Translations under genes and position numbers: made by a program
Shown here: positions 5,801-22,781 of the stretch, in pieces
Layout of the letters: the number at the start of each line of letters is the position of its first letter
Position numbering within the stretch: position 1 is the stretch's first letter
The notes under the pieces: generated by a model
What the model was told of the DNA's origin: nothing
Databases searched by the model: none
Seen by the model: the letters and a program-made list of their open reading frames with translations, nothing else
From: an uncultured bacterium
Lineage (GTDB): Bacteria > Cyanobacteriota > Cyanobacteriia > Phormidesmidales > Phormidesmidaceae
Length of the DNA: 64,000 bases
Reading direction: 5' to 3'
Assembly (NCBI GenBank): GCA_966674685.1
Contig: CBKWJC010000009.1
Span: 25,490-89,489, forward strand

Positions 5801-5818
5801 ATATTTTAATCATGCAGC

Positions 5819-5875
5819 AAAAGAGTGATGAGAGGCAAAGTAAGCTGAGCTTGCTTCGCCTCTCATCACTCTTTT
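5819..5875 (+). terminator. stem-loop downstream of accA
   Basis: Perfect 18-bp inverted repeat AAAAGAGTGATGAGAGGC / GCCTCTCATCACTCTTTT, 19 nt after the accA stop. The right arm ends in TTTT. Confidence 0.7.
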
Positions 5876-6261
5876 GGCTGAATTTCTAGAGTCATCGCCA
5901 TGCCAGATAATTGTCAACAAAATTTTAAGCAATTTCTAAGGCTCATGACTGAATTCAATGTAAGCTGAGACGTGTGGTAATCCCCTAAAAATTTGAGTCG
6001 GAAAACCGAATTTGGCCAAACCTGCCTAAAGGGAAAATCAAGTGTTAAAATGAGAGGCGAAACATAACTTAATACTCGCCAATTGATCAACAGCAACAGC
6101 TTTGAGGCTGATTCATTTGAGTTAGCACATTCAACTTGATGAATCAAATATAGAGTTTTCTCAATTTGCCAAACTGCTATCCTGCTGTTACCAACTGATA
6201 ATGAGGCATTTTAGCTTTTAATTCTTGCTTCTTGAGCATGTCGGAGTCGCGGCATCAACTA

Positions 6262-18986: not shown

Positions 18987-19019
18987 GAAGTGCGATCGCA
19001 GTTTTTAAAGTGCGATCGC
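18987..19019. repeat. paired extended-HIP1 motif (GAAGTGCGATCGCAG-N6-AAAGTGCGATCGC)
   Basis: The same 15-mer and 13-mer recur at 22384-22418. Confidence 0.6.
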
Positions 19020-19039
19020 GTTCTTTTTTGTCAAGCTAA

Positions 19040-19375
19040 TTAGCTGAGATAGCGAGTCAGGATGCTGATGTGGTCGTCAGGTTGGCGCTGGGAGAGAATG
19101 CGCGCGACATCTCCAGCACTGGGGCAGGGGATGGGCTGGCTCCACTCATTCGCTTCGGCAAAACCACGACGGTGCAGGTTTTTAATCGTGACAATGATGT
19201 CGGGGCGAGAGCCGAGCAGGATAATCCGCAGGGGATGACGACCCTCGCGTTGGGGATGGCTGGGATTGGCCGCAGCAGCTTGTGGCGCTGCATGGGGTGC
19301 AGCACCGAGAATGAAGTATGTCATTGGGTTTTCCTGTGTTTTTGACTTTCTGAGAAAAGCCAAAAATCCAGCCAC
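19040..19375 (-). CDS. small hypothetical protein
   Basis: 111-aa ORF with host-like GC. An alternative start is the Met at 19324 (MTYFILG). Confidence 0.45.
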   Translation of the reverse strand: MAGFLAFLRKSKTQENPMTYFILGAAPHAAPQAAAANPSHPQREGRHPLRIILLGSRPDIIVTIKNLHRRGFAEANEWSQPIPCPSAGDVARILSQRQPDDHISILTRYLS

Positions 19376-19898
19376 CCCGCGTTCGTGCAGCGCAATACAG
19401 GGTGGCTTGGGAGAAGCTATAATCCTCCAAGCCTCCGCGTTGCTGGTTCAACGTGGCAGGTTAGCTATCCAGGGTTGTGTCCGCAACTCTGGGTAGCGTT
19501 GGCTAGATTTTTGGTGCCAGTCGCCGCACGCTTGTTCACGGCTACGACAGCTTAACGTTTCACAGTACGGGATTTAGTCGGTGGAGTCAATATTAGTTTA
19601 TTGGCAAAAACGAGCCTCATACCATTTATAAGTGACTCAACACTTTACACAGTGCTAAAAGTTACCTGGATTGAGCTATTTAGAGAAAAATTTCGTTTTT
19701 TAAAGTTTTGACGCACTACAGTCATCTTTTTACCAACATAAAACGAATATTGTTATTAGTTTAATAATGAAGCACTTACTATATGTAATAAGAATCACTG
19801 AGTATAATTCTTCAAATCACACTAAAGAACTAAATTGCCTCCAATACATAAAAAGATATTTTCAGATATAAGCCAAGCATGGAATTCTAAAAGGCTAC

Positions 19899-20954
19899 AT
19901 GAGTCAAGCCAAAAAGATTTTGATATTGTCAGCTAATCCTCGTAGCACATCGCGCCTACGTTTAGACCAAGAAGTGCGAGAAATCAGTTTAGGTTTACAG
20001 AGAACACAAAAAAGAGAGCTTTTTGAAATACATCAAAGATGGGCTGTAAGACCAAGAGAATTAAGACAATCTTTACTAGATATTGAACCACATATTCTTC
20101 ATTTTTGCGGTCATGGCTCTGAAACTGGAAGCTTGTGTTTTGAAGGTAATAATGGTGAAGAGAAATTGGTTCATCCAGAGGCTATAGCTCATTTGTTTGA
20201 GTTATGCCCTTATGTTGAATGCGTGGTTCTTAATGCTTGTTATTCAGAAATACAAGCAATATCTATTAATCAATATATTCGTTATGTCATCGGGATGAAC
20301 CAGGCAATAGGAGATCAAGCAGCAATCGAATTTGCAATTGGATTTTATGATGCTTTGAGTGTGGAACGCAGCTTTGAAGATGCTTATAAATTTGGATGCA
20401 ATGCAATTGAGCTAGAAGGTATTCCTGAGTATTTTACGCCTGTACTAAATATTAAAGGCCAAAATAGATCTTCTCAGTTGCCTTCACAATGGGATAACGA
20501 AGCTTATGTCTCACTCCATTTAGTTCAAGGAGTATTAGAAGAAGCAAGGTTATTTCGCAAGAATCTTTACTGTCATTGGTATCCTCAATTCAAAATAAAA
20601 GCAAAAAGCAACACTAAGAATGGCATCTTAAAAGATGTCTCTAGACCAGTAGACTTTTTAATAGAAGACTTTCAGCGAGATATAAAATTTTTGATCGAGG
20701 TTAAGTCAGCAAAAAGTAAAATTGATGATTCGGCTCGATTTCAACTTAAGACGTATCTTCAGCATTCAAGGTTACGTCATGGAATCGTTATAGATCCATT
20801 TAAGATGGAAATATATGAACTTAATAATGGAAAATTTGACTTTAGGGAAGCTTATGACATAGAAAACCCAGAAAACTTACAACCCATTGCTGCATTTCTT
20901 ACAAAATACTTGGATTCTATCTCAAATGCGTACGATTGCAATTCACACGTCTAA
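19899..20954 (+). CDS. CHAT/caspase-like domain fused to a PD-(D/E)xK (HsdR-N-like) nuclease domain
   Basis: The N-terminal ~185 aa match the widespread cyanobacterial CHAT-type module, with HFCGHG (His72) and VVLNACYS (Cys114). The C-terminal half carries PVDFLIED (Asp252), FLIEVK (Glu267, Lys269) and FQLKTY. Confidence 0.7.
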   Translation: MSQAKKILILSANPRSTSRLRLDQEVREISLGLQRTQKRELFEIHQRWAVRPRELRQSLLDIEPHILHFCGHGSETGSLCFEGNNGEEKLVHPEAIAHLFELCPYVECVVLNACYSEIQAISINQYIRYVIGMNQAIGDQAAIEFAIGFYDALSVERSFEDAYKFGCNAIELEGIPEYFTPVLNIKGQNRSSQLPSQWDNEAYVSLHLVQGVLEEARLFRKNLYCHWYPQFKIKAKSNTKNGILKDVSRPVDFLIEDFQRDIKFLIEVKSAKSKIDDSARFQLKTYLQHSRLRHGIVIDPFKMEIYELNNGKFDFREAYDIENPENLQPIAAFLTKYLDSISNAYDCNSHV

Positions 20955-21855
20955 GGGTGGAGTGGGAAAAACCACTTTGACCGTAAATATGGCTTATGAA
21001 TTAGCTATAACAGGAAAGAAAATACTGGTTATCGACTTAGATGATCAAGCTAATAGCAGTTTGTACTTGGGTGTAAACAAAGCTGATGAGTTCAATAAAG
21101 CTAAAAGCATAGATGAGTTCAACAAGATCTTAGACTCCTTTAAAAGCAGAAAAGAAGTCATAGATTTCTTGCGAGAAGATATTGATTCACCTGACTTTGA
21201 TTATAAAGAATTTATTCATGAAAGCTCGACATTCAACGAATACATCAAGCAAAATGGTGACTCTGGTGGACGAATAGATGTACTGCCAAGTAGCTATAGA
21301 ACAAAAGAAGATGAAATGCTAACTCAGATGGTTGGAGGAGGAGGAATTAAACAAACTCGTTTACACCGAGCATTAAATATGACTGATATTTCCAGCTTTT
21401 ATGATTATGTAATAATTGATACTCCCCCGAACTTGACAATGGTCGGTAATAACGGCTTATATGCCTCACGCTATGTGATTGTACCAACTCAGCTAGAGTA
21501 TTTCTCTGTGTTTGGTGTTAGATCAGTAATTCGCAGCATTCAAAGAACAGTGCAAGTTGACACTGATGGTCAACGAGGCAAGGTGTTGGGAGTAGTGCCA
21601 ATGATGACCGAATCTAATAACAAAATCAATAAGTTTGCGGGTCAGCTATTACAACAAGTTTTGCCTCCTGAAGTTGAGATCTTTTCAGGAATAAAACGAA
21701 CTACTTACTTTGCTGCTGCTGTCAAAGATCGTCTTCCTATTTCAGTTCTTGCACAGAAGAAACCTAGAGCTGCTGGTCAAGCAGCCATACAAGTATCAAA
21801 AGTTGCTGATGAACTGGTTGAAAAAATTAATCAAGAAGAAAATAAAGGAAATTAA
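20926..21855 (+). CDS. ParA/MinD-family ATPase with a ~60-aa insertion
   Basis: It has the deviant Walker A KGGVGKTT, A' IDLDDQAN and Walker B VIIDTPP. The ORF opens at 20887, and the ATG at 20926 gives the usual spacing to the Walker A. It overlaps the upstream gene by 29 nt. Confidence 0.85.
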   Translation: MRTIAIHTSKGGVGKTTLTVNMAYELAITGKKILVIDLDDQANSSLYLGVNKADEFNKAKSIDEFNKILDSFKSRKEVIDFLREDIDSPDFDYKEFIHESSTFNEYIKQNGDSGGRIDVLPSSYRTKEDEMLTQMVGGGGIKQTRLHRALNMTDISSFYDYVIIDTPPNLTMVGNNGLYASRYVIVPTQLEYFSVFGVRSVIRSIQRTVQVDTDGQRGKVLGVVPMMTESNNKINKFAGQLLQQVLPPEVEIFSGIKRTTYFAAAVKDRLPISVLAQKKPRAAGQAAIQVSKVADELVEKINQEENKGN

Positions 21856-21857
21856 GT

Positions 21858-22382
21858 ATGTCTGTAAAAGTTCAAAGTGGATATGGCCTTTTATACTTAA
21901 GTCAAATTTTAGAGCCGAATGGATTATCAGATATTCCTCAAAAAACAACAGATAAAATCATCAAGAGTTTAAATGATTGGGGATTCAATCTATCTCTTCC
22001 TATTGTCTGTTTGACACAAGAAGAAGAAAGATATCGCCTGTTGACAGGATTGCCAATTTACAAGGCAGCTAAAGAGGCAGGGTTGAAGCAAATTTGGGTG
22101 CTTTTAATTGCTCAAGAAGCTTCTACAGCAGAAGAGGTAATCGAGCAGGTTCAACTTCAATCAAAGCTAAATGAGAAACTGATTGAACCTGAAGATTTGG
22201 ATGAGTTTTTGGAATTTCTTAATGCTAAGGAATCAGACCTTACTTCAATACCTGGTATTAAGGAAGGCTATGCAAAATTAATTCAAGAAAAACGCCCTTT
22301 CGACTCTATAGATGAAATGAAGCAAAAGCTGGGGCCAAAGCGATCAATGAACTGGTTTAAGGCATATCAAAAGAAAAAATAA
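21858..22382 (+). CDS. ParB/Srx-like N-terminal domain protein with a C-terminal helix-hairpin-helix
   Basis: PIVCLTQEEERYRLLTGLPIYKAAKEAGLKQIWVLLI aligns with the ParB box region, but GERRxR is replaced by TGLPIYK. DLTSIPGIKEGYAKLIQEKRPFDSIDEM is a ComEA-type HhH. The gene starts 2 nt after the ParA-like stop. Confidence 0.65.
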   Translation: MSVKVQSGYGLLYLSQILEPNGLSDIPQKTTDKIIKSLNDWGFNLSLPIVCLTQEEERYRLLTGLPIYKAAKEAGLKQIWVLLIAQEASTAEEVIEQVQLQSKLNEKLIEPEDLDEFLEFLNAKESDLTSIPGIKEGYAKLIQEKRPFDSIDEMKQKLGPKRSMNWFKAYQKKK

Positions 22383-22386
22383 GGAA

Positions 22387-22418
22387 GTGCGATCGCAGAT
22401 GGGAAAAGTGCGATCGCA
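22387..22418. repeat. 32-nt double-HIP1 repeat, copy A
   Basis: GTGCGATCGCAGATGGGAAAAGTGCGATCGCA matches 23321-23352 with 2 mismatches. Confidence 0.8.
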
Positions 22419-22529
22419 TTTCGCTAAACCAAATGGCACTCAAAAACTGACTACACTAAGATCGAAGTTGTAGCTCTACAGCAACAGTATGGCAACAAAC
22501 CACCCCAGCCACTCTCGAAGCACTGCTGC

Positions 22530-22781
22530 TTGAAATTGAAGCAGACCCTTGCCTATATTCCGATTCAGACAGACACAATGCTGCTAGCGGCTGAACTGTG
22601 GGCAGAAGCAAGGCAAGCTGGACAACCCACGGCTGATGCTAAAGCACTAGATGGAGATGTGATTTTATCTGCTCAAGCTCGTCTACTTAGTGATGAGACA
22701 ACAGAGGTTGTTGTTGCCACAACTAATGTGTCGCATCTATCTCGCTTCATCACAGCACTAGATTGGCAATCTATTATGTAA
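22530..22781 (+). pseudogene. PIN-domain (VapC-like) toxin remnant, N-terminally truncated and probably frameshifted
   Basis: Only the C-terminal half of the PIN fold is present (LLAAELWAEARQAGQPTAD...DGDVILSAQA...VVATTNVSHLSRF). There is no N-terminal Asp motif and no ATG. An upstream alternative frame reads ...TLEALLLEIEADP. Confidence 0.5.

Follow-up and report, generated by a model that had tools for sequence, protein, structure and literature searches.

A three-gene cassette lies on the forward strand of a 64,000-nucleotide (nt) stretch of DNA from an uncultured cyanobacterium of the family Phormidesmidaceae (GenBank assembly GCA_966674685.1, contig CBKWJC010000009.1, positions 25,490 to 89,489; hereafter the window). 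Its first gene (19899..20954, +) encodes a protein of 351 amino acids (aa), here termed CHAT-NUC, in which a minimal CHAT/caspase-fold protease module (residues 4–185; 19908..20453) is connected to a PD-(D/E)xK domain of HsdR-N-like type (NUC; residues 196–342; 20484..20924). The two are joined by a flexible linker (residues 186–195; 20454..20483) with lower predicted local distance difference test (pLDDT) scores and without secondary structure. The last 29 nt of this gene (20926..20954) overlap in the +1 frame with the start of the second gene (20926..21855, +), which encodes a 309-aa ParA/Soj-type ATPase with a deviant Walker A motif, and the third gene (21858..22382, +) encodes a 174-aa protein with a ParB/sulfiredoxin fold and a C-terminal helix-hairpin-helix (HHH) (hereafter the third protein). 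An AT-rich region upstream (19560..19898, +) is the presumed promoter and the 5′ boundary of an insert of low guanine-plus-cytosine (GC) content. An inverted repeat directly 3′ of the third gene (22384..22422), which contains the highly iterated palindrome HIP1, forms the 3′ boundary of this otherwise HIP1-free insert and may be a terminator hairpin. The first-pass annotation gave the open reading frame (ORF) of CHAT-NUC and all of its residue numbers exactly, as confirmed codon by codon, but described the protein as stand-alone and lacking any NTPase. CHAT-NUC is instead the N-terminal piece of a split NUC–ParA gene whose ATPase ORF begins within it, and thus a CHAT-decorated domain that has become detached from the N-terminus of the ATPase in a ParA system.

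Residues 9–157 of CHAT-NUC match the Pfam CHAT family (PF12770; 32.7 bits against a cutoff of 24), and the protein matches the PADLOC 'chat' model at 1.1e-18. In the AlphaFold2 model, which was built from a 39-sequence alignment (mean pLDDT 87.5; >90 in the C-terminal half), residues 5–185 form a six-stranded α/β core of the caspase type. The best Foldseek match of the N-terminal half in the PDB is SAVED-CHAT in its activated filament structure (8tl0; E=1.4e-11; root-mean-square deviation 3.0 Å over ~194 columns), followed by caspases-9, -6, -4 and -11, Dronc and separase. A phmmer alignment (6.7e-13, 24% identity) pairs the motifs ILHFCGHGS and VVLNACYS of CHAT-NUC with ILHFIGHGT and VVLNACCT of 8tl0. 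Mutation of the catalytic dyad of SAVED-CHAT, H375/C422, abolishes its activity (SAVED-CHAT paper). Because the motifs align and the paired His and Cys of 8tl0 are 47 residues apart, the same spacing as in H375/C422, His72 (codon CAT, 20112-20114) and Cys114 (codon TGT, 20238-20240) are the counterparts of this validated dyad. The Cys is kept in 25/25 sequences and the His in 23/25; it is replaced by Tyr (GYG for GHG) in one of 10 CHAT-NUC orthologues (P0008, from Leptolyngbyaceae SL_5_14) and in one CHAT-only relative, both with the remaining motifs intact. By modelled fold and aligned dyad the CHAT half is a caspase-fold protease, with predicted peptidase activity. The earlier assignment to the CHAT/caspase fold with intact His72/Cys114 is therefore upheld by Pfam, by Foldseek and by alignment to the 8tl0 dyad, a check that had been set beforehand.

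The module belongs to a very large pool. The CHAT-NUC query matches 13,984 library representatives at E≤0.001, nearly all of them via the CHAT module, and only ~10 CHAT-NUC proteins are known, metagenomes included (56–100% identity, all in one 50%-identity cluster). Among the nearest 110 non-orthologous matches (50–68% identity), CHAT is fused to AAA_35 (~39), TIR (~10), TRADD-like_N (9) and GUN4 (8), and in single cases to EAD9, HD-CE, vWA, TPR, a periplasmic-binding domain or Mrr_cat, whereas many consist of CHAT alone. The ~185-aa CHAT core is thus among the most promiscuous modules of cyanobacteria. The earlier view that it usually heads NACHT/WD40/TPR proteins of the STAND type (signal transduction ATPases with numerous domains) is only partly right, in that the nearest relatives mostly carry AAA_35, TIR, GUN4, TRADD-like_N, EAD9 or HD-CE, and once Mrr_cat. 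By Pfam, neither a STAND NTPase nor a repeat sensor is present in the CHAT-NUC polypeptide, and the associated NTPase is of the ParA type, in the overlapping next ORF. The survey of CHAT architectures proposed in the first-pass annotation found one other fusion to a PD-(D/E)xK domain among these 110 proteins (CHAT–Mrr_cat, P0117), so that the combination arose at least twice.

The NUC half scores below threshold against two Pfam families, HSDR_N_2 (residues 228–316), with 18.9 bits where 25 are required, and PDDEXK_3, with 17.7 bits where 22 are required. Its placement, by fold and motifs, is consequently at the level of the PD-(D/E)xK superfamily and in neither of these families. The model of residues 196–341 shows an αβββαβ core (H201–215, E225–238, E244–257, E262–268, H277–290 and E294–298, all with pLDDT >90), followed by a β-hairpin and a long helix. 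A profile search with NUC against PDB sequences gave no match, and relatives were found by fold search only: Foldseek with the C-terminal half matched 9y1l, a putative protein with a restriction-endonuclease domain (E=2.5e-4), 3h1t, a fragment of HsdR (E=2.3e-3), and 6okh. The catalytic motifs are placed on this core in order, with E201 at the start of α1 (H201–215), D252 (codon 20652-20654) on β2 (E244–257) and E267-V-K269 (codons of E267 and K269, 20697-20699 and 20703-20705) at the end of β3 (E262–268). E201, D252, E267, K269, Q282 (codon starting at 20742) and D299 do not vary among the orthologues or among relatives that lack CHAT, whether stand-alone or fused to ParA, and the catalytic motif residues are invariant across 20 diverse NUC sequences. 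On the model and these motifs, NUC is a PD-(D/E)xK fold of HsdR-N-like type, for which metal-dependent nuclease activity is predicted. The earlier reading of the C-terminal half in these terms, with its ordered motifs, agrees with both the predicted structure and the Foldseek matches.

The second protein is a genuine member of its family, with Pfam matches to AAA_31 (1.8e-38), CbiA and ParA, and with Soj (6iub and 1wcv) as the closest solved structures. Across 26 family members, there is no variation in Walker A (KGGVGKT), Walker A′ (DLDDQ) or Walker B (D-T-P-P). A ~70-aa insert rich in acidic residues and Lys (residues ~45–125) lies between Walker A′ and the remaining fold, and accounts for the length of 309 aa as against ~250 aa in Soj.

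The third protein is one of a small family (~98 proteins, nearly all annotated as hypothetical), and its Pfam matches are weak (ParB_N, 19.5 bits, below the cutoff of 26.3; and HHH_3). Its AlphaFold2 model (pLDDT 90.7) matches Noc, ParB, PadC and KorB in Foldseek at E ~1e-5, and sulfiredoxin with a TM-score of 0.77. In ParB proteins, the CTP switch uses the arginine-containing GERR box (GxxRxxA), and sequence-specific binding to parS uses a helix-turn-helix (HTH). In the third protein, the box is replaced by L-L-T-G-L-P-I-Y-x-A-A, with no arginine in 30/30 aligned members, and the C-terminus is a ComEA-like HHH rather than an HTH. From these two differences, the third protein is predicted to have neither a CTP switch nor sequence-specific parS binding; the earlier label 'ParB-like' holds at the level of the fold, but not for the GERR box or the DNA-binding tail. 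A search for centromere-like repeats beside the cassette at six loci gave no shared array, which does not prove that parS is absent, and the repeats that were found are specific to single loci (23-nt x1.9 in the window, 14-nt x3 at the Elainellaceae locus L001, and palindromes at the Thiomargarita locus L043).

The relationship of CHAT-NUC to the ATPase follows from the relatives of NUC. A profile of the C-terminal 164 residues retrieved ~150-aa proteins and the N-terminal parts of ParA-type ATPases, rather than other CHAT proteins. One relative reads through from NUC into ParA ('...FLESVR-MRTIAFHTSKGGVGKTT'), and both stand-alone and ParA-fused NUC proteins begin right after the position of the CHAT–NUC linker. 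A census in which one genome per species was scanned, the four modules were mapped, and frames and stops were checked gave 47 loci in two groups of hosts, namely filamentous cyanobacteria (Microcoleus, Microseira, Nostoc, Scytonema, Potamolinea, Floridaenema, Aerosakkonema, Phormidium and others) and large sulfur bacteria (Thiomargarita, Thioploca, Parabeggiatoa and other Thiotrichaceae; Beggiatoaceae). An intact, in-frame NUC–ParA ORF (~445 aa) is present, with an equally intact third gene (~175 aa) after it, at 26 loci in 26 species-level genomes. NUC and ParA are split without CHAT at two to three loci, and at least eight loci carry degraded copies with frameshifts, stops, truncations or a deleted ParA. 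The only CHAT-NUC form among the species representatives is that of an Elainellaceae genome (L001 and L011, which are one locus). Ancestrally, NUC is an N-terminal domain of the ParA ATPase.

Several members of the family are rearranged. In Nostoc sp. 'Peltigera malacea cyanobiont' (P0269), ParA has been lost and NUC is fused directly to the HHH-containing C-terminal part of the third protein. Deletion derivatives in Aerosakkonema (L006/L020) retain just NUC and a 45-residue ParA remnant. In a metagenome-assembled genome of Thiomargarita (L042:1091-3322), the gene after NUC–ParA encodes a second ParA paralogue (40% identity) and not the ParB-fold/HHH protein.

The junction between NUC and ParA was aligned at the DNA level for four CHAT-type loci, three fused loci and one independently split locus. 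Relative to the fused genes, all four CHAT-type loci share an extra single nucleotide just before the ParA ATG, which in the window lies at 20926, in the +1 frame. The 29-nt overlap is the scar of this single-nucleotide insertion, which split an ancestral NUC–ParA fusion. The split of the Thiomargarita type has a separate origin, through a 10-nt insertion containing TAG. In a neighbour-joining tree of the ParA part (rooted with unrelated ParA, without bootstrap), the CHAT clade is monophyletic, stands beside the cyanobacterial fused forms and is nested among fused forms, with the gammaproteobacterial fused forms deeper. Taken together, the tree and the shared insertion give the polarity: the fused NUC–ParA came first, and the split and the gain of CHAT followed on the same lineage. 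A CHAT module from the large and heavily shuffled cyanobacterial pool was thus added to the N-terminus of NUC, and the fusion is better read as CHAT joined to a domain of a ParA system than as a nuclease joined to a CHAT effector.

An ancestral fusion with a ParA ORF that overlaps the end of CHAT-NUC in the +1 frame would also be the expected remnant if a programmed +1 ribosomal frameshift within the 29 nt still produced a CHAT-NUC–ParA polyprotein. This is very unlikely, since no slippery or stall motif is conserved and the bases before the ATG differ among the four loci (TCTCAA, TTTCAG, TCTCTC and TGACTA). Unconserved bases around the extra nucleotide speak for ordinary translational coupling, as does a conserved ATG at the exact start of ParA. 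Another account would make CHAT-NUC a decaying by-product, the frameshift having disabled the system and the CHAT fusion being a neutral accident, and the many visibly degraded relatives and the His-to-Tyr change in P0008 are of the kind that it would predict. It is nevertheless highly improbable, because the ten orthologues (56–71% identity) are full-length and retain their catalytic residues, apart from the His of P0008. Downstream ParA and the third gene are intact at every CHAT-type locus (68–83% and 62–68% identical across these loci, respectively), and conservation extends to the start codon of ParA and to the overlap.

The base composition of the cassette differs from that of its surroundings. 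The GC content of 19560-22382 is 0.356, as compared with 0.51 in the remaining window, and the CHAT, NUC, ParA and third-gene segments are alike (0.33–0.375), which indicates that the cassette entered this genome as one unit. In all cyanobacterial hosts, the GC content of the cassette is 0.35–0.39, 7–14 points under that of the flanks, whereas in the Beggiatoaceae hosts (Thiomargarita and Parabeggiatoa; L041-L055 compared with L013-L037) cassette and flanks are about equal. Together with the ParA tree, this contrast hints at an origin in sulfur bacteria and transfer into cyanobacteria. The host of the window is a cyanobacterium rich in HIP1, with 89 sites observed (one per ~720 bp) against 1.7 expected, and is probably related to Elainellaceae or Leptolyngbyaceae. 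No HIP1 site occurs between 19019 and 22389, the longest HIP1-free stretch of the window (~3.4 kb), which holds the cassette and a small ORF (19040-19375, −) and is bracketed by extended HIP1 repeats (AAAGTGCGATCGC) at 19007-19020, 22385-22397 and 22405-22418. By itself, this gap is not statistically decisive, since a 3.4-kb gap is estimated to be unsurprising among 89 intervals, and it counts only together with the drop in GC.

Two sets of observations concern the boundaries of the cassette. Directly after it, the window contains an ORF fragment without a proper start (22437-22781, +), perhaps what is left of a gene at the edge of the insertion. Visual inspection suggested the C-terminal half of a PIN/VapC toxin (…DGDVILSAQA…VVATTNVSHLSRF), an impression without Pfam support that was rejected. 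The cassette of Ca. Thiomargarita nelsonii is flanked on either side by copies of one palindrome (AAAAATCCTATTTCTT / AAGAAATAGGATTTTT; L043:5757-5823 and L043:7881-7913), and a 56-nt inverted repeat is present just upstream of it (5809-5928); these may be elements resembling miniature inverted-repeat transposable elements or repetitive extragenic palindromes. Target-site duplications or terminal repeats common to the loci were not found, and a scan for promoter and terminator consensus sequences around the cassette gave nothing above chance.

The order CHAT-NUC, ParA, third gene is conserved in four unrelated neighbourhoods (the window, L001, L002 and L004), and NUC is fused to ParA in 26 other genomes. 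Both observations bear out the earlier suggestion that the downstream pair works with CHAT-NUC. The neighbours of CHAT-type cassettes are housekeeping genes, with toxin–antitoxin (TA) modules in L002, and the cassette of L004 lies 1.3 kb downstream of psaE. Across the loci, neighbours typical of genetic conflict include HicAB, ParE/Phd, PIN, XRE arrays, Dam, AAA_15/21 ATPase and TnpB; in Thiomargarita, the genes after the cassette are those of Dam, a fragment of ParA, an AAA_15/21-DUF3696 ATPase and TnpB. Homologues of NUC and the third protein were absent from 72,556 plasmids and 50,697 phages (tblastn), and from IMG/VR viral contigs (pattern scans), which indicates that, in the data available, the cassette is not a partition locus of plasmids or phages.

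The cassette is best read, at a probability of about 0.45, as a horizontally acquired three-gene conflict or defence module that acts against mobile elements or by abortive infection, a function that we infer from several lines of evidence. These are its sporadic distribution over two phyla, its foreign base composition and the frequent decay of its copies, and also the TA and mobile-element neighbours and the accretion of an effector module that is typical of conflict systems. By their motifs, all three enzymes appear catalytically competent, with the His/Cys dyad of CHAT, the E...D...ExK residues of NUC and Walker A, A′ and B of ParA all looking intact. In general, ParA proteins undergo ATP-dependent sandwich dimerization, bind DNA non-specifically and have an ATPase activity that is stimulated by the N-terminus of a partner protein. 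In the cassette, ParA would form such a dimer on DNA, and the ParB-fold/HHH partner would either recruit the assembly to DNA, or modulate the ATPase and reset the assembly. The last helix of NUC runs directly into the first strand of ParA in the fused proteins, and dimerization of ParA could juxtapose two NUC domains to yield a nuclease competent for cutting. In the CHAT-bearing variant, the same DNA- and ATP-dependent assembly might bring CHAT domains together and activate the protease by proximity, by analogy with initiator caspases and with SAVED-CHAT, which is activated by oligomerization into filaments (SAVED-CHAT paper). Activation of CHAT would add proteolytic arrest or death of the cell to DNA cleavage.

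Several points weigh against this reading. For the CHAT-bearing variant, it assumes that NUC still docks non-covalently on ParA after the split, and the predicted template modelling score of the CHAT-NUC model (0.59) is uninformative on the relative orientation of the two domains. The component proteins matched no system in PADLOC-DB v2 and, beyond the isolated CHAT domain, no defence model: there were domain-level matches to 'chat', to the CHAT part of SAVED_CHAT and, by the P-loop only, to PDC-M28B and mad8, and none for the third protein. The cassette contains no methyltransferase or other obvious discriminator of self from non-self, no candidate gene for a protease substrate is found in it or nearby, and P0008 lacks the His of the CHAT dyad. 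In addition, the fused cassette lies ~200 bp downstream of psaA–psaB, on the same strand, in 23 cyanobacterial genomes of several genera (L006, L013-L018, L020-L022, L024, L025, L027-L031, L033-L036, L039 and L050; at ~6001 in each), a conserved position that could fit stable residence with a housekeeping role.

In some genomes, psaI/psaL follow beyond the psaAB-linked cassette. Downstream of such cassettes are one to four tandem genes for ~70-aa HTH proteins of the XRE type on the minus strand, sometimes with HicA/HicB adjacent, and each XRE gene is paired with a divergent gene of ~157–161 aa without a Pfam match (e.g., L015:9936-11346, L018:8380-10994 and L006:6955-7779). These pairs were considered as fourth and fifth components of the system and rejected, as they are absent from the window, L001 and all gammaproteobacterial loci.

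A housekeeping role might consist of positioning or segregating polyploid genomes, with NUC as a domain of ParA for DNA binding or anchoring, the third protein as a cargo adaptor and CHAT as a regulatory add-on. In type Ia ParA proteins, an N-terminal HTH serves as the DNA-binding domain, which provides a model for such a role of NUC. The authentic Soj/ParA ATPase with intact motifs, the ParB fold of its partner, the large, polyploid and multicellular nature of all of the hosts and the recurrence after psaAB in 23 genomes are consistent with this proposal. It is improbable, however, as a pure binding domain would not need the invariant D...ExK residues, and a ParB-like protein without a GERR box and a sequence-specific HTH, the lack of a consistent centromere-like array beside the cassettes and their absence from the plasmids searched are not what a segregation system would predict. 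The sparse distribution, the many pseudogenized copies and the foreign composition also argue against it.

The psaAB site may be an insertion hot spot, or the cassette may have been transferred by recombination through the conserved photosystem I genes. Another reading is that of a selfish addiction or homing cassette, in which NUC would be a toxin or homing endonuclease that is checked or directed by the ParA/ParB-like proteins and CHAT would be a second toxin. Post-segregational killing might maintain such an element, as might the cleavage of empty target sites, for example the psaB 3′ region. A small, self-contained unit of low GC without a recombinase of its own, found in varied housekeeping contexts, recurring at one post-psaAB site across genera and frequently neighboured by TA modules, would suit an element of this kind. 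It is nonetheless an unlikely explanation, given that the loci have no target-site duplications or terminal repeats in common and that plasmids, phages and viral contigs yielded no copy; the location at psaAB could equally be due to homologous recombination through the flanking genes, which are highly conserved.

The conflict-module reading can be set against systems with similar parts. SAVED-CHAT, from the hybrid of type III-B CRISPR and CBASS in Haliangium ochraceum (8tl0), has the same protease fold and an aligned dyad, and in it, as in the window cassette, a CHAT effector is attached to a module that acts as sensor or switch. Unlike SAVED-CHAT, the TPR-CHAT of Craspase and the TIR-activated caspase-like protease, CHAT-NUC has no SAVED, TPR or cyclic-nucleotide sensor. 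The SAVED_CHAT model of PADLOC covers only its CHAT part. Relative to this group, CHAT-NUC is a minimal CHAT core of ~185 aa, and the partner of this core is the PD-(D/E)xK domain of a ParA system.

The conflict systems described in multicellular bacteria combine caspase and restriction-endonuclease (REase) effectors and include MinD/ParA-like domains (Kaur, Burroughs, Iyer, Aravind; PMC7159879, PMC8195603). The partners found here for the highly conserved cyanobacterial CHAT module, which is 55–68% identical in those fusions (AAA_35, TIR, TRADD-like_N, EAD9, HD-CE, GUN4, vWA and Mrr_cat), match the effector and adaptor repertoire of those systems, and the bias towards filamentous cyanobacteria and Beggiatoaceae is shared. 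A cassette of NUC–ParA with a ParB-fold/HHH protein is not described in either paper, in which the MinD/ParA domains are, by prediction, inactive effector domains of vWA–MoxR systems. The ParA of the cassette, by contrast, has invariant motifs and is the apparent core switch, and STAND, MoxR and vWA components are lacking.

With ParABS systems (Soj/ParA with ParB/Spo0J, Noc or KorB), the cassette shares the deviant Walker A ATPase, the fold of the ParB/Srx N-domain and a tight operon in which ParA precedes ParB. It differs in the N-terminal PD-(D/E)xK domain that its ParA bears or is coupled with, and in that the partner has an HHH instead of the GERR box and HTH. In addition, no parS-like repeats were found, none of the plasmids searched carries the cassette, and the cassette is sporadic, AT-rich and often decayed. 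The HsdR-N and small PD-(D/E)xK families (HSDR_N_2 and PDDEXK_3/GxxExxY; 3h1t and 9y1l) have the same core fold and the same E...D...ExK...Q order, and in HsdR the nuclease domain is also N-terminal to an ATPase. The ATPase of the cassette is, however, a dimerization switch of the ParA type rather than a superfamily 2 translocase, and there is no methyltransferase or specificity subunit. DNA-maintenance machines are known to have been repurposed for defence in Wadjet/JetABCD, which combines SMC proteins with a Toprim nuclease, and in GmrSD, SspE and BrxU, which combine a ParB-like NTPase with a nuclease. The cassette shares with these the concept of a DNA-organizing NTPase or ParB-fold module coupled to a nuclease, which is an analogy only; the class of NTPase differs. 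No ParA-linked CHAT or REase system was found in the literature searched, the coverage of which is incomplete.

Modular fusions of CHAT effectors are known, and what is new here is a CHAT fusion on an apparently undescribed cassette derived from ParA and ParB. Whether this cassette amounts to a new class of system is a suggestion that can be made only tentatively. It is conceivable, if rather doubtful, that the [PD-(D/E)xK–ParA] and [ParB-fold/HHH] pair is a previously unrecognized class of immune or conflict system, exchanged between giant sulfur bacteria and filamentous cyanobacteria. In such a class, a ParA switch on DNA would license a nuclease and, in the clade of the window, also a caspase-like protease by induced proximity, as a DNA-templated, 'apoptosome-like' assembly.

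Bacterial CHAT proteases have lately been shown to be immune effectors that are switched on by cyclic-nucleotide sensors or CRISPR complexes. The CHAT core of the window is wired differently, to an ATPase system of the ParA type that brings its own nuclease domain and a partner with the ParB fold. Three natural variants, the fused one, the split one and the split one with CHAT, constitute a ready-made experimental series. Should the cassette prove to be a defence module, it would be a third chromosome-maintenance machine co-opted for immunity, after SMC/Wadjet and the ParB-like GmrSD, and would offer a simple three-protein system in which to study how proximity activates a caspase homologue of prokaryotes. 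Because it is confined to filamentous cyanobacteria and Beggiatoaceae, the cassette strengthens the case that genes flow between these lineages and that some conflict systems are specific to multicellular bacteria.

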